Below are positions 1 to 4,595 of a DNA stretch of 4,595 nucleotides, in pieces. The stretch comes from a virus (lineage: Duplodnaviria; Heunggongvirae; Uroviricota; Caudoviricetes), in the IMG/VR virus record IMGVR_UViG_2695420564_000008. One strand, 5' to 3'. The notes under the pieces are model-generated. The model was given only the letters and a program-made list of their open reading frames with translations, made no database searches and had not been told where the DNA came from. Numbering within the stretch: position 1 is the stretch's first letter; the number at the start of each line of letters is the position of its first letter. Both the position numbers and the translations under genes were made by a program.

Positions 1-349
1 AAACAACAAGCAGCCAGCAGGCAATCACAGAAGCCACAGCAGCAATCATCACCAGCACAACACAACGAACCTCCGATGGATTTTGCTGTCTAACAGTTCA
101 ATGAATACCGCGCATTATAAGAGCCCGGCGTTTGACAGTATTATGGCGGAAACGTTGAAAGCTACTGACGAAGCGCAACGTACGGCGCTGTACACGAAAG
201 CAGAACAGCAACTGGATAAAGACTCGGCCATTGTTCCTGTTTATTACTATGTGAACGCGCGTCTGGTGAAACCGTGGGTTGGTGGTTATACCGGTAAAGA
301 TCCGTTGGATAACACCTACACCCGAAATATGTACATTGTGAAACACTAA
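1..349 (+). CDS. oppA: Periplasmic oligopeptide-binding protein OppA, 3' end (partial; gene begins upstream of the window)
   Basis: Frame-2 translation from about nt 86 to the TAA at 347-349 (LSNSSMNTAHYKSPAFDSIMAETLK...YYYVNARLVKPWVGGYTGKDPLDNTYTRNMYIVKH) matches my recollection of the E. coli OppA C-terminus. It is followed 85 nt later by oppB, the native operon order. The frame is open from the window edge, but nt 1-85 encode a low-complexity stretch I do not recognise as OppA (see findings). Confidence 0.85.
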   Translation, partial: NNKQPAGNHRSHSSNHHQHNTTNLRWILLSNSSMNTAHYKSPAFDSIMAETLKATDEAQRTALYTKAEQQLDKDSAIVPVYYYVNARLVKPWVGGYTGKDPLDNTYTRNMYIVKH

Positions 350-360
350 TGGCAATACGT

Positions 361-381
361 GGGGCAGGAGAGTCCTGCTCC
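361..381 (+). promoter_or_regulatory. Stable GC-rich hairpin in the oppA-oppB intergenic spacer (possible intra-operon attenuator or mRNA 3'-end stabiliser)
   Basis: GCAGGA (364-369), loop GAG, TCCTGC (373-378), extendable to about 9 bp with one G-U pair (361-381). A TTTTT run lies 10 nt downstream (392-396), so it is not a canonical intrinsic terminator. Its position between the binding-protein gene and the permease genes fits differential expression within ABC-transporter operons. Confidence 0.35.
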
Positions 382-434
382 ACGGTGTCTGATTTTTATC
401 GCATTACAGAAGGCACAGGCCAGAAGGTAGGGCA

Positions 435-1355
435 ATGTTAAAATTTATTCTACGTCGCTGTCTGGAAGCGATTCCGACGCTATTTATCCTCATTACTATT
501 TCGTTCTTTATGATGCGTCTCGCTCCGGGAAGTCCTTTTACCGGAGAACGTACATTACCGCCAGAAGTGATGGCCAATATTGAAGCGAAATATCACCTAA
601 ATGATCCGATCATGACGCAGTATTTCAGTTATCTGAAACAACTGGCGCATGGCGATTTTGGCCCTTCTTTTAAATATAAAGATTATTCGGTCAATGATCT
701 GGTTGCATCTAGTTTCCCGGTTTCTGCAAAACTCGGGGCCGCTGCATTTTTCCTTGCGGTGGTACTGGGCGTTAGCGCAGGTGTTATTGCCGCTTTAAAT
801 CAAAATACTAAATGGGATTACACGGTCATGGGACTGGCGATGACCGGGGTGGTTATTCCCAGTTTTGTAGTTGCGCCATTATTAGTGATGATATTTGCGA
901 TCATTTTGCACTGGTTGCCCGGCGGCGGCTGGAACGGCGGGGCGCTGAAATTCATGATCCTGCCGATGGTCGCTTTATCACTGGCTTATATCGCCAGTAT
1001 TGCGCGTATTACCCGTGGTTCAATGATCGAAGTTTTACACTCTAACTTCATTCGTACCGCACGCGCGAAAGGCTTACCTATGCGACGCATTATTTTCCGT
1101 CATGCATTAAAGCCTGCGTTGTTGCCCGTGCTCTCTTATATGGGGCCCGCATTCGTCGGCATTATTACCGGCTCTATGGTGATTGAAACCATTTATGGTC
1201 TACCGGGTATCGGGCAGTTGTTTGTTAATGGCGCATTGAACCGTGATTATTCGTTGGTCTTAAGCCTGACCATTCTGGTTGGGGCGTTGACCATTCTGTT
1301 CAATGCCATTGTCGATGTACTGTATGCGGTTATCGACCCGAAAATTCGTTACTGA
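435..1355 (+). CDS. oppB: Oligopeptide ABC transporter permease OppB
   Basis: 306-aa ORF with ATG at 435 preceded by AGGTAGGG; TGA stop at 1353-1355. The translation (MLKFILRRCLEAIPTLFILITISFFMMRLAPGSPF...DVLYAVIDPKIRY) is a full-length match to E. coli OppB as I remember it, hydrophobic multi-span throughout. Confidence 0.97.
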   Translation: MLKFILRRCLEAIPTLFILITISFFMMRLAPGSPFTGERTLPPEVMANIEAKYHLNDPIMTQYFSYLKQLAHGDFGPSFKYKDYSVNDLVASSFPVSAKLGAAAFFLAVVLGVSAGVIAALNQNTKWDYTVMGLAMTGVVIPSFVVAPLLVMIFAIILHWLPGGGWNGGALKFMILPMVALSLAYIASIARITRGSMIEVLHSNFIRTARAKGLPMRRIIFRHALKPALLPVLSYMGPAFVGIITGSMVIETIYGLPGIGQLFVNGALNRDYSLVLSLTILVGALTILFNAIVDVLYAVIDPKIRY

Positions 1356-1369
1356 TACTGGAGCTCGCG

Positions 1370-1585
1370 ATGATGTTAAGTAAGAAAAACAGCGAGACGC
1401 TGGAAAATTTCAGTGAAAAGCTGGAGGTCGAAGGCCGCAGTTTATGGCAGGACGCGCGTCGACGTTTTATGCATAACCGCGCAGCCGTCGCCAGTCTGAT
1501 TGTGCTGGTGCTTATCTCGCTGTTTGTGATTCTGGCGCCAATAATTTCTGCGATTAAAAAAAGTTACCTTGTATGCAATATGTGA
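1370..1585 (+). pseudogene. oppC: oppC, 5' fragment only (permease truncated after about 57 codons by a junction with foreign DNA)
   Basis: ATG at 1370 with CTGGAG Shine-Dalgarno. MMLSKKNSETLENFSEKLEVEGRSLWQDARRRFMHNRAAVASLIVLVLISLFVILAP matches the OppC N-terminus. After about nt 1542 the frame reads ISAIKKSYLVCNM and stops at 1583-1585, where native OppC continues for roughly 245 more residues. oppD and oppF are absent. Confidence 0.85.
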
Positions 1586-1625
1586 ATTAAAAGAGATAGT
1601 TGGCAATATCTGATAAGTATTCTCT

Positions 1626-1640
1626 GCCTGAGTATCAGGC
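1626..1640 (+). other. Short palindrome GCCTGA-GTA-TCAGGC followed by a T-rich run (terminator-like or operator-like)
   Basis: Perfect 6-bp inverted repeat with a 3-nt loop, followed by TCTATATTTTT (1641-1651). A wider imperfect inverted repeat CTGATA (1610-1615) / TATCAG (1633-1638) surrounds it. It sits immediately upstream of the TTG at 1650. Confidence 0.3.
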
Positions 1641-1649
1641 TCTATATTT

Positions 1650-2387
1650 TTGAGCACAATAATTCACCAGTATGAAGGCGTACTCTATCAAGCGGGAAAC
1701 TTGCCACCAGACCACGGCAGCAAAGACATAGAAAACTTATTATTTGGTTCTATTATTTCTACTAGAGAAGATACCGAAAGATATCTAAATGAAGGTGTTT
1801 TCGATGGTATGAAGTGCTTAGCAAGTGGATTATGGCACGTTCCTAGTGATTTCATTGCTTCCCTTGCAGGGGTTAAGAGAGCCCCTGACATTCCACTCAT
1901 ATTCTCACCAGCATATATAAAAAAAGAACTAGATATCACATCAGGACGTTACTTTTTCTACGATTTTCGCGAACATGATACCACCGTATCGTCTGTGGAA
2001 GATTTGTATATATCAAGACCGTGGGTTGAATATATAGCTGAAAGCATGGATAAAAATCAGCCAATACCCAGCATACTCCATTTGGGTTCACACGATCTTT
2101 ATGAAAAGGAATTTAAAAACATAGAGCATGGAAATAGAGCACGACATAGCCTGAACCGTGAGAATAGCATTATGGCGTTGATTTATGTGAAACGGCACTA
2201 TCCGGAAGAGTGCAAAGGGAAAAACGGGAAAGAAACCAACGAAGCGTGGGCAAACGCTACGATAGACCACTGGCCACATGTGGGTGGCGATTATGATGAA
2301 CCATCTACAGATTATTTAAAGAAGATCATATCTGACATGGACAGATTGCCGGAAAAACGTACCACGGCAGGAAAGAAGAAATCATGA
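1650..2387 (+). CDS. Hypothetical protein, 245 aa from the TTG start (192 aa if the in-frame ATG at 1809 is used); AT-rich orphan cargo gene
   Basis: Long open frame ending at TGA 2385-2387 in an AT-rich segment, with no overlapping ORF of comparable length on either strand. The start is uncertain: TTG at 1650 has only a weak Shine-Dalgarno-like TCAGG upstream and an in-frame stop lies 6 codons upstream at 1629-1631; the first in-frame ATG is at 1809, preceded by GAAGGTG. No transmembrane segment, signal peptide or catalytic motif recognised by eye. Confidence 0.6.
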   Translation: MSTIIHQYEGVLYQAGNLPPDHGSKDIENLLFGSIISTREDTERYLNEGVFDGMKCLASGLWHVPSDFIASLAGVKRAPDIPLIFSPAYIKKELDITSGRYFFYDFREHDTTVSSVEDLYISRPWVEYIAESMDKNQPIPSILHLGSHDLYEKEFKNIEHGNRARHSLNRENSIMALIYVKRHYPEECKGKNGKETNEAWANATIDHWPHVGGDYDEPSTDYLKKIISDMDRLPEKRTTAGKKKS

Positions 2388-2388
2388 T

Positions 2389-2420
2389 AATAAAATTTAG
2401 TATCGTGACAATAAAATTTA
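2389..2420 (+). promoter_or_regulatory. Tandem direct repeat AATAAAATTTA (2389-2399 and 2410-2420) in the intergenic region upstream of the AlpA-family gene; candidate operator
   Basis: Two identical 11-mers with a 21-bp centre-to-centre spacing (two helical turns), in the 112-bp AT-rich gap between the 245-aa ORF and the AlpA-like gene. TTGAGC (2434-2439) and TTAAAT (2450-2455) hexamers are nearby but with poor spacing, so no promoter is asserted. Confidence 0.3.
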
Positions 2421-2499
2421 CTGTAATTCACTTTTGAGCATGCACACCATTAAATACCCGTAACGAAGCAACAACTATCGCTAAGAGGTTACGGGAAGC

Positions 2500-2703
2500 A
2501 TGAACACCGACACGATTCCTACAAAAGGCTATATCAGACGCTTTCGCCTGGCTGAATTGCTGGGCGTTAGTGTATCCACCATCGACCGTAAAGTAAGAAA
2601 CGGTTCACTACCACGTCCGGTAAAGCTGGGAGAAAAAATAACTGCGTTTGATGCGGTTGAGATTCACAACTGGCTGGCAGAACGCCGCGGGAAGGTGGCC
2701 TGA
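2500..2703 (+). CDS. AlpA-family helix-turn-helix transcriptional regulator (prophage or island regulatory, excisionase-like)
   Basis: 67-aa ORF with ATG at 2500 preceded by AAGAGG/GGGAAG. The translation RLAELLGVSVSTIDRKVRNGSLPRPVKLGEKITAFDAVEIHNWLAERR has the arrangement I associate with AlpA / Phage_AlpA HTH proteins. Its TGA stop (2701-2703) overlaps the next ATG by one base (TGATG). Confidence 0.85.
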   Translation: MNTDTIPTKGYIRRFRLAELLGVSVSTIDRKVRNGSLPRPVKLGEKITAFDAVEIHNWLAERRGKVA

Positions 2704-3134
2704 TGGAAAAGAAAAACCGCCCATTACAGGCGGCTAATTCAGATACTCGCGTATCTGATGTTACGCCCCTTACAAAATCCCTTCAAGCACCAAAGCGCAC
2801 ACCGAAAAAGCATCGTGCCAGAGTCTATATGCTGCGTACTGGTATAGAGGGATGGACAGAAAATGACATTCTTCGCTACTGCCGTCTGTCTTCTGGTCGT
2901 AACTATGCAACAGAGTTAGAACGCCAGCTTGGAATCACTCTGGAGCGTATCGACGAAAAGAATCCTGATGGTATCGGAACACACCTTCGCTACCGTTTCT
3001 CCTGCCGCGGTGATGTTCTGAAAGTGATCACTCATATTAACCATCTTGCGAACATAAATGATCACAACGGACTTTCTCAGCAGGAAATTGCCGACATTCT
3101 GAAACTCTACCCGGACGCGTTTAACGCCGCCTAA
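2703..3134 (+). CDS. Hypothetical protein, 143 aa, basic N-terminal region; translationally coupled to the AlpA-like gene
   Basis: ATG at 2703 overlaps the upstream stop; TAA at 3132-3134. Lys/Arg-rich N-terminus (PKRTPKKHRAR). No family recognised from memory. Confidence 0.7.
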   Translation: MEKKNRPLQAANSDTRVSDVTPLTKSLQAPKRTPKKHRARVYMLRTGIEGWTENDILRYCRLSSGRNYATELERQLGITLERIDEKNPDGIGTHLRYRFSCRGDVLKVITHINHLANINDHNGLSQQEIADILKLYPDAFNAA

Positions 3135-3146
3135 CGGAGACTGAAA

Positions 3147-3980
3147 ATGAACATCGAAAAAAGCAGATTAATTTCTGAGGCCGCCCCTCATCTGAACGCC
3201 TCTCTGGGCACAATTAACGGTAATGAATTTGCCGCAATTGTCCCGGTTATTCCTGGTCACATCGGTGGGCGTGAAACCAATATTGTTAGCGCAAAAGCGT
3301 TACACAAAGCGTTGGGCGTGGGAAAAGACTTCTCTACATGGATCACTGATCGCATCTCTGAATATGACTTCACCATTGGGCACGATTACTCAGTCCATAA
3401 AACAATTTCCCCAAATTTGGGGAAAAGCCCGAATGGCGCGGCTTACAGCAAGATTAAGCAGTCTGGCAGACCCGGCAAAGACTATCTGTTAAGTGTCGGA
3501 ATGGCGAAAGAACTGGCAATGATCGAACGCAATGATCAGGGTCGCGCTATCCGTCGTTATTTCATCCAGTGCGAGGAAGAATTACAGCGTAGCGTGCCTG
3601 AAATCGCCGCCCGCTATCGTCGCCAGCTAAAAGCCCGTATCAGTGCCGCAAACAACTTTAAGCCAATGTGCGATGCGCTGAATATGGCCCGTGCCGAGCA
3701 GGGGAAAACGACGCAGCAACACCACTACACAAACGAGAGCAATATGATTTCTCGTATCGTTCTTGGAGGGCTAACTGCTAAGCAGTGGGCGCGGATAAAT
3801 GGCTATTCTGGCGAACCTCGCGACCATATGAACGCAGAACAGCTTGAGCACCTCTCATATCTCGAAAGCACCAATATCACGTTAATTGATATGGGCATGG
3901 AATATGAGCAGCGCAAAGGAGAACTCACCCGCCTGTCGCAACGCTGGCTCGCCAAGCGTCTGGAGGCGGTCCATGTTTAA
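3147..3980 (+). CDS. Phage antirepressor-like protein with an N-terminal AntA-type domain
   Basis: 277-aa ORF with ATG at 3147 and GGAG 7 nt upstream. The N-terminal region (ALHKALGVGKDFSTWITDRISEYDFTIGHDY ... DYLLSVGMAKELAMIERNDQGRAIRRYFIQCEEEL) matches the signature I recall for AntA/AntB antirepressor N-terminal domains. I cannot assign the C-terminal half. Confidence 0.85.
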   Translation: MNIEKSRLISEAAPHLNASLGTINGNEFAAIVPVIPGHIGGRETNIVSAKALHKALGVGKDFSTWITDRISEYDFTIGHDYSVHKTISPNLGKSPNGAAYSKIKQSGRPGKDYLLSVGMAKELAMIERNDQGRAIRRYFIQCEEELQRSVPEIAARYRRQLKARISAANNFKPMCDALNMARAEQGKTTQQHHYTNESNMISRIVLGGLTAKQWARINGYSGEPRDHMNAEQLEHLSYLESTNITLIDMGMEYEQRKGELTRLSQRWLAKRLEAVHV

Positions 3981-4143
3981 GCCGACAGGAACACCACAAC
4001 CTCAAAAACGCTACAAAGATGCCCACGGAGCACTCGTTACTGTCGAAAGCGTGTCTCACAACCGAGTGACGTTTTATCGCGACGGGTATCAATCGCCATG
4101 CGTACAACCGCTGGCGCGCTTCATGAAGGAGTTCTCTCTTTAG
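3973..4143 (+). CDS. Small hypothetical protein (56 aa), translationally coupled to the antirepressor-like gene
   Basis: ATG at 3973-3975 overlaps the upstream TAA (ATGTTTAA arrangement), with GGAGG 5 nt upstream; TAG at 4141-4143. The ORF track extends this frame back to an ATG at 3886 (85 aa), which would overlap the upstream gene by 95 nt; the coupled start is more parsimonious. No family recognised. Confidence 0.5.
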   Translation: MFKPTGTPQPQKRYKDAHGALVTVESVSHNRVTFYRDGYQSPCVQPLARFMKEFSL

Positions 4144-4240
4144 TCACGCTCACATTACGCGACCAATACTAACAAAACATTAACACTATCTGGCAAAATT
4201 TTGTTCTAAACTTGATCTCAGCGAAATGGCTGCGCCTGAA

Positions 4241-4269
4241 TTGTGATAAAAATCACATTTTTATCACAA
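4241..4269. promoter_or_regulatory. Perfect 12-bp inverted repeat TTGTGATAAAAA-TCACA-TTTTTATCACAA with an embedded CRP-like site TGTGA-N6-TCACA (4242-4257)
   Basis: Directly readable: left arm 4241-4252, spacer TCACA 4253-4257, right arm 4258-4269. The nested TGTGATAAAAATCACA fits the CRP half-site consensus with a 6-bp spacer. It lies about 200 bp upstream of the gapA start. Confidence 0.5.
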
Positions 4270-4285
4270 CTGCCCTTTAAAATTC

Positions 4286-4298
4286 GGGGCGCCGCCCC
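4286..4298. other. GC-rich palindrome GGGGCG-C-CGCCCC (short hairpin or protein-binding site)
   Basis: Near-perfect 13-bp palindrome. On the minus strand it is followed by GAATTTTAAA, giving a weak terminator-like appearance; no T-run follows on the plus strand. Function unclear. Confidence 0.25.
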
Positions 4299-4393
4299 CA
4301 TGTGGTCTCAAGCCCAAAGGAAGAGTGAGGCGAGTCAGTCGCATAATGCTTAGGCACAGGATTGATTTGTCGCAATGATTGACACGATTCCGC

Positions 4394-4421
4394 TTGACGC
4401 TGCGTAAGGTTTTTGTAATTT
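4394..4421 (+). promoter_or_regulatory. Probable gapA proximal promoter: -35 TTGACG (4394-4399), 16-bp spacer, extended -10 TGTAATTT (4414-4421)
   Basis: Hexamers and spacing read directly; a second TTGACA lies at 4379-4384. Consistent with my recollection that gapA has a strong extended -10 promoter, but not verified against the published start site. Confidence 0.55.
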
Positions 4422-4452
4422 TACAGGCAACCTTTTATTCACTAACAAATAG

Positions 4453-4595
<143 letters not shown>

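Follow-up and report, generated by a model that had tools for sequence, protein, structure and literature searches.

Genes and features of the window

We analysed a stretch of 4,595 nucleotides (henceforth the window), which is the complete 4595-bp draft contig CCBU01000303.1. Within it, an array of four + strand open reading frames occupies positions 2500-2703 (67 aa), 2703-3134 (143 aa), 3147-3980 (277 aa) and 3973-4143 (56 aa). The features listed here are described with reference to two islands of E. coli, namely that of strain 042 and EcCIMP1, a phage-inducible chromosomal island (PICI) of E. coli MP1 which is mobilised by the P22-like Kapi1 (PMC11773190).

1..85, + strand: piece 1, 3' portion of an accessory ssb gene (..NEPPMDF), final codons missing
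84..1544, + strand: piece 2, Escherichia albertii-type chromosome ('oppA to 349, oppB 435-1355, oppC 5' fragment from 1370)
1545..1629, + strand: piece 3, 85 nt of intergenic DNA belonging to an unrelated chromosomal locus (exact match, both ends abrupt)
1630..2387, + strand: start of piece 4, 5'-truncated 281-aa gene (EC042_RS21010), which follows the integrase in the 042-type island
2381..2420, + strand: pair of 19-nt direct repeats, ATCATGATAATAAAATTTA / ATCGTGACAATAAAATTTA, with starts 21 nt apart, upstream of alpA
2500..2703, + strand: alpA-family gene, 67 aa, 042-type allele, excisionase-like HTH (Pfam and PHROGs)
2703..3134, + strand: orf143, conserved protein, 141/143 identical to its EcCIMP1 homolog
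3147..3980, + strand: antA, 277-aa 'antirepressor' of the AntA/AntB family, AntA domain at the N-terminus
3973..4134, + strand: DUF4222 gene, 3'-truncated, 54/60 native codons by alignment to the 60-aa 042 protein
4135..4595, + strand: piece 5, E. albertii msrB-gapA intergenic region and gapA 5' end (gapA start 4465)

The genes of the array are tightly packed. The stop of alpA and the start of orf143 overlap by 1 nt (TGATG at 2701-2705), the spacer between orf143 and antA is 12 nt long (3135-3146, with GGAG at 3136-3139), and antA overlaps the DUF4222 gene by 8 nt (ATGTTTAA at 3973-3980); by direct reading, Shine-Dalgarno-like motifs lie 5' of 2500 (AAGAGG), 2703 (AAGGTGG) and 3973 (GGAGG). 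A first-pass annotation had described four same-strand, overlapping or abutting ORFs belonging to a single operon. The former is confirmed by the sequence and the ORF list, and the latter is supported. The annotated loci of E. coli 042 and E. coli MP1 have the same gene order and overlaps. Given that this arrangement was seen again in 10/10 other contigs, the array is not a product of chance. It is also true, as had been stated, that no integrase, primase, tRNA or att repeat lies inside the window. The fourth ORF is present as described, but it is not a native 56-aa gene: it joins 54 of the 60 DUF4222 codons to a foreign tail, with 2 foreign codons and a stop past 4134 (to 4143) coming from DNA upstream of gapA.

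Profile searches on the four proteins gave Pfam scores above cut-off for AlpA, AntA and DUF4222 and nothing significant for the 143-aa protein. Both regulator assignments (AlpA and AntA) made earlier therefore hold, and the proposed link to phage satellites and PICIs is supported by Pfam, PHROGs and the EcCIMP1 paper (PMC11773190). The statement that two of the four proteins lack an assignable function needs correcting, since DUF4222 has a Pfam family (PF13973; 84.9 bits vs. a cut-off of 27, 2.7e-24; 54/54 identical to EcCIMP1 over the shared residues) and only the 143-aa protein is family-less.

The alpA product matched Pfam Phage_AlpA (PF05930; 34.3 bits vs. a cut-off of 21, 2.2e-08, residues 12-59) and phrog_66, 'excisionase and transcriptional regulator' (9.5e-08). 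It is 100% identical to AlpA of 042, shares 21/67 identical residues with EcCIMP1 AlpA (34%, BLOSUM62 alignment) and is ~31-34% identical to experimentally tested AlpA proteins. From its position 3' of int and its co-variation with int, it is a predicted activator of the island's lytic operon. Experiments on EcCIMP1 (PMC11773190) and EcCICFT073 (PMC6092414) found that helper prophage induction turns on the alpA promoter, and that AlpA boosts its own expression and is required for island excision, circularisation and transfer in helper capsids (PMC11773190, PMC6092414). On the + strand between 2388 and 2499 we found no consensus sigma-70 promoter for alpA, consistent with a promoter that depends on an activator, and the direct repeats at 2381-2420 are candidate regulator-binding sites.

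For the antA product, the match to Pfam AntA (PF08346; 77.6 bits vs. a cut-off of 27, 1.1e-21) covers residues 47-129, and PHROGs returned anti-repressor Ant (phrog_5817, 1e-37). Its C-terminal half matched phrog_2657 (8.9e-23), a domain common to phage regulators, and residues 165-266 matched PADLOC PDC-S22 (9.7e-11), with only part of that profile covered. The protein is 273/277 identical to its EcCIMP1 homolog, and 8427 index blocks list the exact window version. We found no experiment on this particular AntA protein in the literature. At the level of the island, helper titres and CI-lux expression were unchanged by the presence of EcCIMP1, which argues against strong derepression of the helper.

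The orf143 product has 610 homologs across Enterobacterales, whose names, where given, are hypothetical, uncharacterised or 'prophage protein'. It had no significant match in Pfam, PHROGs, NCBIfam or PADLOC, the hit to Pfam HTH_91 (E=0.017, 15.3 bits) being below the cut-off of 27. The N-terminal ~46 residues are predicted to be disordered and are basic. In the AF2 model (mean pLDDT 63.5) the core has an H-H-H-E-E topology at a pLDDT of ~65-85, and a Foldseek search of this model against the PDB gave a sub-threshold best hit (E=0.058), with mostly winged-helix regulators among the top matches. The modelling weakly suggests that the core is probably a winged helix.

Parent islands and exchange between their variants

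Positions 1630-4134 of the window (2505 nt) are 100% identical to the E. coli 042 island, and the identity stops at 4134. This island (NC_017626.1, ~4198135-4218000; EC042_RS21005 onward, next to yicC) is annotated with an integrase, the 281-aa gene, the HTH gene, the 143-aa gene, AntA, DUF4222, Ash, small ORFs and a TOPRIM/DUF927 primase. Specifically, it has a tyrosine integrase and the full 281-aa gene, and after DUF4222 it continues with Ash, six small ORFs, the primase and P22-type ejection-protein genes, all of which the window lacks. We did not find a description of the 042 yicC island under a name in the literature. Positions 2693-4134 (1442 nt) are also 98.75% identical to EcCIMP1 (Pick, Stadel & Raivio, ISME J 2025; OR778291; helper vB_EcoP_Kapi1), which has the same four genes in the same alpA-143-aa-AntA-DUF4222 order. 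EcCIMP1 differs from the window in its AlpA allele and in having int, ash, primase, ejection-protein genes and PerC; the 042-type island differs from EcCIMP1 in its integrase (29% identical), its location (at yicC, not thrW) and its extra 281-aa gene.

More than 500 E. coli records contain the fragment at 90% identity or above. In all of the intact loci examined (12/12; 042, MP1 and 10 contigs), an integrase lies 5' of the array and DUF4222 is followed by Ash, small ORFs and a primase. The 10 contigs with the exact AntA protein fall into three chromosomal neighbourhoods, and in each of them the array is preceded by a P4-type integrase and followed by Ash and primase. The primase of the intact loci (Zn_Ribbon_Prim + Toprim_3 + DUF927) lies ~3 kb 3' of DUF4222. 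The suggested search of related genomes for an intact parent thus recovered integrase and primase at every one of these loci, and gave no support to the idea that the element is decayed. As it has neither integrase nor primase, the window holds a fragment of an EcCIMP1-like member and not a complete one. Judged from gene order, the four genes are the first part of what reads as a ~13-gene operon in a known, functional island family. This satellite family is already described, is annotated in RefSeq and occurs in a sizeable share of E. coli genomes; helper-dependent induction, excision and packaging have been shown for EcCIMP1 with Kapi1 (PMC11773190). No deposited phage record carries the module; Edwardsiella phage EPP-1 has just a distant AntA-like gene, and Stx/lambdoid phages share just a 53-nt stretch.

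Comparison of the island variants shows where they exchange DNA. Integrases that are 29% identical are paired with AlpA alleles that are 34% identical, while orf143 and AntA remain 96-100% identical, and the DNA breakpoint between variants falls at window position 2693, i.e., 10 nt 5' of the alpA stop. In this comparison alpA is swapped together with the integrase, as a recombination and induction cassette, and orf143-antA-DUF4222 forms the nearly invariant front of the replication block. Given that alpA co-varies with int and the other three genes with the replication block, the module comprises two evolutionary units and not one. The comparison thereby locates the swap site of EcCIMP1-like islands (int and alpA vs. 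orf143-to-primase) at the alpA stop, and pinpoints orf143, antA and DUF4222 as three invariant early genes. The EcCIMP1 paper describes a conserved core of antirepressor, Ash and primase with variable int and AlpA (PMC11773190), and the pattern seen here agrees with it.

From the tight gene order, transcription from the alpA promoter would be expected to run through orf143, antA, DUF4222, ash and the small ORFs into the Zn-ribbon/Toprim/DUF927 primase. Going by domain homology, AntA and orf143 may be DNA- or repressor-binding early proteins that act on the helper or on promoters of the island.

Joins in the contig and in its sister assembly

The contig is most likely a chain of five unrelated fragments that arose in assembly or library preparation. 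Piece 1 (1-85) is 100% identical to an annotated ssb found in 172/5426 E. coli genomes, and departs from the oppA sequence that the sister contig L004, from a second assembly, has upstream of window position 84. Piece 2 is ~89.8% identical to E. coli oppA-oppB-oppC (with an OppC_N Pfam match) and, over 84-1542, 100% identical to L004. Piece 3 has an exact counterpart in metagenome contig OLIF01000047.1 (L097 6001-6085, minus strand; 100% identity), where we read the neighbourhood by eye from ORF translations as metC-exbB-exbD-aldo/keto reductase; the snippet had no match in 5426 E. coli genomes or in the island loci compared. We rejected the possibility that this snippet represents an alternative start of the 281-aa gene, in view of its in-frame stops, this lack of matches and its exact match to an unrelated chromosomal intergenic region. 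The copy of the 281-aa gene that follows lacks its first 30 codons (by alignment, the longest ORF left begins after residue 36), and its product had no match in Pfam, PHROGs, NCBIfam or PADLOC. Piece 5 matches the E. albertii type strain at 99.6% identity (L017 1184-1646). In the native locus, the start codon of msrB is 11 nt left of the 4134/4135 join, and the only bases shared at this join are 'TC'. The deposited record has N's at 1540, 1543, 1544 and 1631, all four at most 2 nt from two of the joins, and these had been silently replaced by A in the window.

The sister assembly is demonstrably chimeric. L004 contains a single ORF in which fragments of YeaH, RsmB and SmpB are fused (with an N at the RsmB/SmpB join) and a ParE fragment fused to an MFS transporter. 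Its oppC-island join lies at a different point from that of the window and has 8 N's; the N pattern there, NATNNTNNTNCTGNCTGN, was compared by eye with a simple consensus of oppC and filler and was only partly consistent with it. Two joins are apparently common to both assemblies: 4134|4135, which has no N in either, and 1629|1630, for which the support in L004 amounts to ~6-8 N-peppered bases. Joins shared in this way make a random artefact unlikely unless the assemblies share reads, library or strain, and as a 2-nt overlap is too short for a de Bruijn join, an artefact would presuppose chimeric molecules or some merging of sequences after assembly. We also considered 4134 as a natural divergence or assembly-graph branch point, and rejected this since six variants are colinear through the equivalent position. 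No papers citing the assembly or the WGS accessions were found.

Overall, we put a probability of roughly 0.8 on 1630-4134 being an internal 2.5-kb piece of an EcCIMP1-like PICI of the 042 type that was stranded by an assembly or library artefact. The earlier picture of a self-contained module, whether a decayed element or a stand-alone cassette, is not supported: both ends of the island fragment lie inside genes (the 281-aa gene and DUF4222), the operon is longer, the contig is a patchwork and the sister is chimeric. What was found instead is the conserved core of a known, annotated element, its displacement by an assembly artefact being a strong inference and not proof.

It is unlikely, though still the best of the alternatives, that the contig holds a genuine decayed remnant, i.e., that in this E. 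albertii lineage illegitimate recombination left a 2.5-kb island fragment, maybe still expressed from its alpA promoter, between a truncated oppC and gapA. The 4134|4135 join, identical in two assemblies with no ambiguous base, would be expected under this scenario, the 2-nt microhomology fits illegitimate recombination, and the upstream region of alpA and three ORFs are intact. In the E. coli gene order, presumed to hold in E. albertii too, opp and gapA are separated by hundreds of kilobases that include essential genes. This distance speaks against a remnant, as does the fact that opp adjoins gapA in no E. coli genome. Moreover, the left side would demand two more joins (oppC to the 85-nt snippet, and snippet to island), each marked by N's, the oppC join lies elsewhere in the sister assembly, and the same assemblies hold impossible fusions of ParE, RsmB, SmpB and YeaH fragments. 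Among 153 billion gene positions, the 56-aa junction protein was recorded in just these two contigs; the right-junction 30-mer is absent from 185,579 species-representative genomes, which rules out the join as a species-level feature and nothing more.

Contamination is an even less probable source of the patchwork. Under this explanation, the island and ssb pieces would derive from contaminating E. coli, stitched to E. albertii sequence by the assembler, and the E. albertii strain would have no island at all. Both mobile-element pieces are indeed 100% identical to E. coli in a backbone that is ~90-95% identical to E. coli and 99.6% to E. albertii, and N's at the joins fit conflicting read populations. 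However, identity of mobile elements between Escherichia species is common, so contamination is not needed to explain the former; the other joins in L004 link E. albertii-type backbone pieces to one another, so chimerism extends beyond E. coli-like DNA; and neither contig contains housekeeping sequence of E. coli grade (>98%).

We regard as very doubtful a further reading in which the gapA join is real and alpA-orf143-antA, keeping its promoter but separated from integrase and primase, is a domesticated, helper-responsive phage sensor or interference module in this E. albertii lineage, or in which orf143-AntA-DUF4222 is the helper-facing part of EcCIMP1-like islands. Such a sensor could, for example, work through an effect of AntA on a P22-like repressor or on superinfection. 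Finally, the idea that orf143-AntA-DUF4222 (with AlpA) senses or interferes with helper or competing phages independently of island mobility is highly improbable: the PDC-S22 defence candidate is matched by the C-terminal half of AntA and the three genes hardly differ between island variants, but the match is only partial over the profile, the genes sit inside an int-to-primase operon at every intact locus examined with no stand-alone copy seen, and the SieA-like and P22-type ejection-protein genes of the islands are equally plausible candidates for EcCIMP1 immunity.

The element is a fragment of a known island in a probably chimeric assembly, and since its genes belong to an already described satellite family, it has little importance as a discovery. 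Its practical meaning is that some public draft assemblies, in this case GCA_000940615.1 and GCA_000936005.1 with contigs CCBU01000303.1 and CDRK01000047.1, hold contigs chained from unrelated fragments. Inferences of a 'stranded module', a 'fusion protein' or a 'deletion' from such contigs are unsafe, and isolated N's at joins are a useful warning sign of chimerism.

Relation to known satellites

The parent islands share their int, alpA and primase layout with EcCICFT073 and other Gram-negative PICIs (Fillol-Salom et al., ISME J 2018). In EcCICFT073, AlpA is the master activator: it is induced by the helper, activates itself and is required for induction and transfer (PMC6092414). The word antirepressor has 0 occurrences in that paper. 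EcCIMP1 is phylogenetically distant from the Gram-negative PICIs and lacks their recognisable packaging module (PMC11773190).

The parent islands also resemble satellite phage P4 and P4-like elements, which similarly combine an integrase and an AlpA/Vis-family HTH protein with an Ash-family gene, an early 'antirepressor' and a replicon based on a primase. P4 epsilon offers an analogy for an early antirepressor acting on a helper, and AntA is not known to be related to epsilon. P4 Psu, Delta and Sid had no Pfam match in the precomputed lists for the 10 parent loci, and neither psu, delta, sid nor epsilon appears in the annotations of 042 and MP1. An Ash-family gene (PF10554) is present in the parent loci, and the known helper of EcCIMP1 is P22-like and not P2-like, unlike that of P4.

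Four coupled genes and their family assignments

The feature under study comprises four ORFs on a single strand, taken from the ORF list together with their Pfam matches:

2500-2703, + strand: alpA (Phage_AlpA match)
2703-3134, + strand: orf143
3147-3980, + strand: antA (AntA match)
3973-4143, + strand: DUF4222 gene (DUF4222 match)

We found a 1-nt stop/start overlap between alpA and orf143 (TGATG at 2701-2705), a 12-nt spacer containing GGAG ahead of 3147 between orf143 and antA, and an 8-nt overlap between antA and the DUF4222 ORF (ATGTTTAA at 3973-3980). All three families scored above their curated Pfam cut-offs: 34.3 bits for the 67-aa AlpA protein (cut-off 21), 77.6 bits for the 277-aa AntA protein (cut-off 27) and 84.9 bits for the fourth ORF (DUF4222; cut-off 27). 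PHROGs assignments were concordant for AlpA (phrog_66, “excisionase and transcriptional regulator”) and AntA (phrog_5817, “anti-repressor Ant”), while the DUF4222 protein matched phrog_285 (function unknown). Based on these matches and coordinates, the overlapping same-strand arrangement and the AlpA and AntA assignments made in the first-pass annotation are therefore correct. Its statement that two of the four proteins lack an assignable function holds for orf143, which had no significant match in Pfam, PHROGs, NCBIfam or PADLOC; the fourth at least belongs to a named family.

Homologs of orf143 (610 in total) occur across Enterobacterales, in genera including Escherichia, Salmonella, Klebsiella, Citrobacter, Enterobacter, Serratia and Pectobacterium, and those with names are labelled hypothetical, uncharacterised or “prophage protein”. 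The AlphaFold model, for which 30 sequences were used (mean pLDDT 63.5), predicts a disordered, basic N-terminus of ~46 residues and a core (residues 50-139; 10-residue block means of ~65-85) with a helix-helix-helix-strand-strand topology followed by two helices. The model had no significant Foldseek match in PDB (best E=0.058); its top matches, all sub-significant, were mostly winged-helix regulators (e.g., TFIIE and the MarR/SlyA family), and a match to HTH_91 below the Pfam threshold agrees with this trend. The most that can be claimed is that orf143 is probably a winged-helix DNA-binding protein.

AntA combines an N-terminal AntA domain with a C-terminal half outside any Pfam family. That half matches phrog_2657 (“transcriptional regulator”), and residues 165-266 of the protein (window 3639-3944) match positions 156-259 of the 281-position profile PDC-S22, a PADLOC defence candidate (E=9.7e-11). 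Within antA, a 53-nt stretch at 3406-3458 contains the perfect palindrome TTTCCCCAAATTTGGGGAAA, scores as a terminator-like hairpin on the minus strand and matches ~70 records of Stx-converting or lambdoid phages at 91-94%; in one Stx2a phage its counterpart lies directly downstream of a 270-aa antirepressor-like ORF. The stretch falls where the Pfam domain match exceeds the profile by 15 residues, and is possibly a relic of recombination between ant genes.

Upstream of alpA, after the stop of the preceding gene (termed here the 281-aa gene), two 19-nt direct repeats (2381-2399 and 2402-2420) are spaced 21 nt start to start, and no consensus sigma-70 promoter was found on the + strand. We consider these repeats candidate regulator-binding sites, which AlpA or a helper-encoded activator could bind.

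Four genes of a known island, divided between two modules

When the window was compared with 5426 complete E. coli genomes using megablast, no genome covered it entirely; positions 1630-4134 were 100% identical to E. coli 042, and more than 500 E. coli records matched at 90% identity or more. In 042 the counterpart sits within an island adjoining yicC. Its gene order opens with a tyrosine integrase and the 281-aa gene (no match in any library searched), followed by an AlpA-type HTH protein, the 143-aa gene, AntA and DUF4222 (60 aa); beyond these lie an Ash-family gene, six small ORFs that overlap, a TOPRIM/DUF927 primase of 918 aa, genes for P22-type ejection proteins and a regulator of the PerC family. 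We infer that one transcript spans alpA to the primase. The 277-aa AntA protein is very common in its exact form (8427 index blocks list it), and in 10 out of 10 of its contexts, drawn from three different chromosomal neighbourhoods, a P4-type integrase lies 0.4-1.3 kb upstream of alpA, while DUF4222, (Ash), small ORFs and the primase follow AntA. With intact relatives (042, E. coli MP1 and these ten contexts) thus carrying an integrase upstream and a primase downstream, the proposal of a self-standing module is not supported: the four genes, though correctly read, are an unremarkable part of a satellite island that is known and widespread.

The parent islands also encode, beyond the primase, homologs of the virion ejection proteins of P22, namely DUF2824, P22_gp7, Inj_translocase/gp20 and P22_gp16 (29069-33727 in locus L001, ~17.4-20.8 kb in L006-L015 and 15481-20649 in L016); one parent locus also has a weak SieA match in the same region. 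A satellite with ejection-protein genes of its helper's type is unusual, with possible relevance to superinfection immunity or particle function.

Nor do the four genes form one unit. Across eight loci (042, MP1 and six others), two integrase types are 29% identical and their AlpA partners 34% identical, and a third AlpA allele (69%) accompanies an integrase close to that of 042. For orf143 and AntA, identity is 96-100% throughout. DNA homology between types starts at window 2693, which is 10 nt short of the point where alpA stops and orf143 starts. Given this divergence, constancy and boundary, alpA belongs with the integrase in an exchangeable recombination and induction cassette, while orf143-antA-DUF4222 is the front of a conserved replication block. 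All three AlpA alleles end in VA and have the last ~10 nt in common, a stretch that takes in the AAGGTGG ribosome-binding site and the TGATG overlap; this common end (2693-2705) coincides exactly with the start of inter-type homology. The coupled stop/start appears to be the recombination joint between cassette and block.

A patchwork contig

The window is the entire 4595-bp contig CCBU01000303.1 of GCA_000940615.1, in which five unrelated stretches are joined:

1-85: 3' part of an accessory ssb (E. coli copies are 100% identical)
84-1544: 'oppA-oppB-oppC'
1545-1629: 85-nt intergenic snippet, 100% identical to a metagenome contig locus
1630-4134: island fragment
4135-4595: gapA upstream region and gapA start

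By sequence identity the backbone is Escherichia albertii: window 4133-4595 and the type-strain msrB-gapA region share 99.6% identity, and YeaD of a sister contig, CDRK01000047.1 (GCA_000936005.1), shares 99% identity with its type-strain counterpart. The snippet, presumably from a metC-exbB-exbD-aldo/keto reductase neighbourhood (identified by eye), is absent from the 5426 E. coli genomes, and its metagenome match breaks abruptly at both ends. The island fragment is interrupted inside both end genes: the 281-aa gene copy is 5'-truncated by 30 codons (36 residues are missing from the start of its longest remaining ORF) and DUF4222 lacks its last 6 codons. The two sides of the right join have only “TC” in common, and the msrB start codon of native E. 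albertii lies 11 nt away. The snippet-island join creates a terminator-like hairpin (GCCTGA-GTA-TCAGGC, 1626-1640) absent from both parent sequences; short inverted repeats at joins are a feature of some polymerase template-switch chimeras.

We consider this structure an assembly or sample artefact, the mixed-sample variant included, with a probability of roughly 80%. The deposited contig has N at 1540, 1543, 1544 and 1631, all four of its ambiguous bases lying within 2 nt of the oppC-snippet or snippet-island join; the window shows A there, which hides this warning sign of misassembly. Apart from this contig, the 56-aa junction ORF is on record only in the sister contig (15 kb), which is itself a serial chimera of non-syntenic fragments (malY-add', ParE fragment/MFS transporter, 'oppA-oppB-oppC', island fragment, gapA-yeaD-mipA-yeaG-yeaH', RsmB fragment, 'smpB-ssrA). 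Its chimeric stretches (1770-2963 and 13177-14259) and Ns (2994, 5129-5146, 14062 and 15090-15095) include several joins at isolated Ns. One fusion ORF runs from YeaH (DUF444 positions 2-201 of 418) through an RsmB fragment into the SmpB C-terminus; an N falls exactly on the RsmB/SmpB join, and yeaH departs mid-gene from native E. albertii sequence. In another ORF, residues 184-261 of topoisomerase IV subunit B (ParE) are fused with an MFS transporter. Since parE is essential in E. coli, these contigs cannot faithfully picture a chromosome. The yeaE gene is missing between yeaD and mipA both in the sister contig (9943-10020) and in the type strain (locus L017, 3479-3557), and this gap relative to E. 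coli is therefore native.

A genuine remnant in the organism is improbable. In its favour, the right join is the same in both assemblies and free of N, and a de Bruijn assembler would not join across a 2-nt overlap; an artefact would therefore require chimeric molecules or some step that merged sequences, together with material common to both assemblies. Against it, the sister contig's oppC-island join lies 77 nt further along oppC, skips nearly the whole snippet and carries 8 Ns; opp-gapA adjacency occurs in none of the 5426 E. coli genomes, and none of 185,579 species-representative genomes contains the junction 30-mer. The window does lack an integrase, but the “stranded” state most probably reflects a patchwork draft contig rather than the organism.

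Relation to characterised islands

The element has already been described as an EcCIMP1-like phage-inducible chromosomal island. EcCIMP1 adjoins proA in E. coli MP1, and its helper, the P22-like phage Kapi1, induces and transduces it (Pick, Stadel & Raivio, ISME J 2025, PMC11773190). The MP1 locus reads tRNA-Thr, integrase, alpA, 143-aa gene, AntA, DUF4222, ash, icd, small ORFs and primase; its DNA is 98.75% identical over window 2693-4134, with 141/143 identical residues in orf143, 273/277 in AntA and all 54 shared residues in DUF4222. Among EcCIMP1-like elements the antirepressor, Ash and primase are conserved, and int, AlpA and PerC are variable; EcCIMP1 contributes to superinfection immunity and leaves helper titres and CI expression unchanged (PMC11773190).

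By analogy with these relatives, helper induction would switch on the alpA promoter, and AlpA would activate its own gene and be required for excision and transfer. AntA and orf143 are putative early DNA- or repressor-binding factors. In EcCIMP1, alpA keeps a conserved position after int, is needed for excision, circularisation and transfer, raises its own expression and has a promoter that responds to helper induction and not to DNA damage alone (PMC11773190); the same AlpA logic has been demonstrated in EcCICFT073 (PMC6092414).
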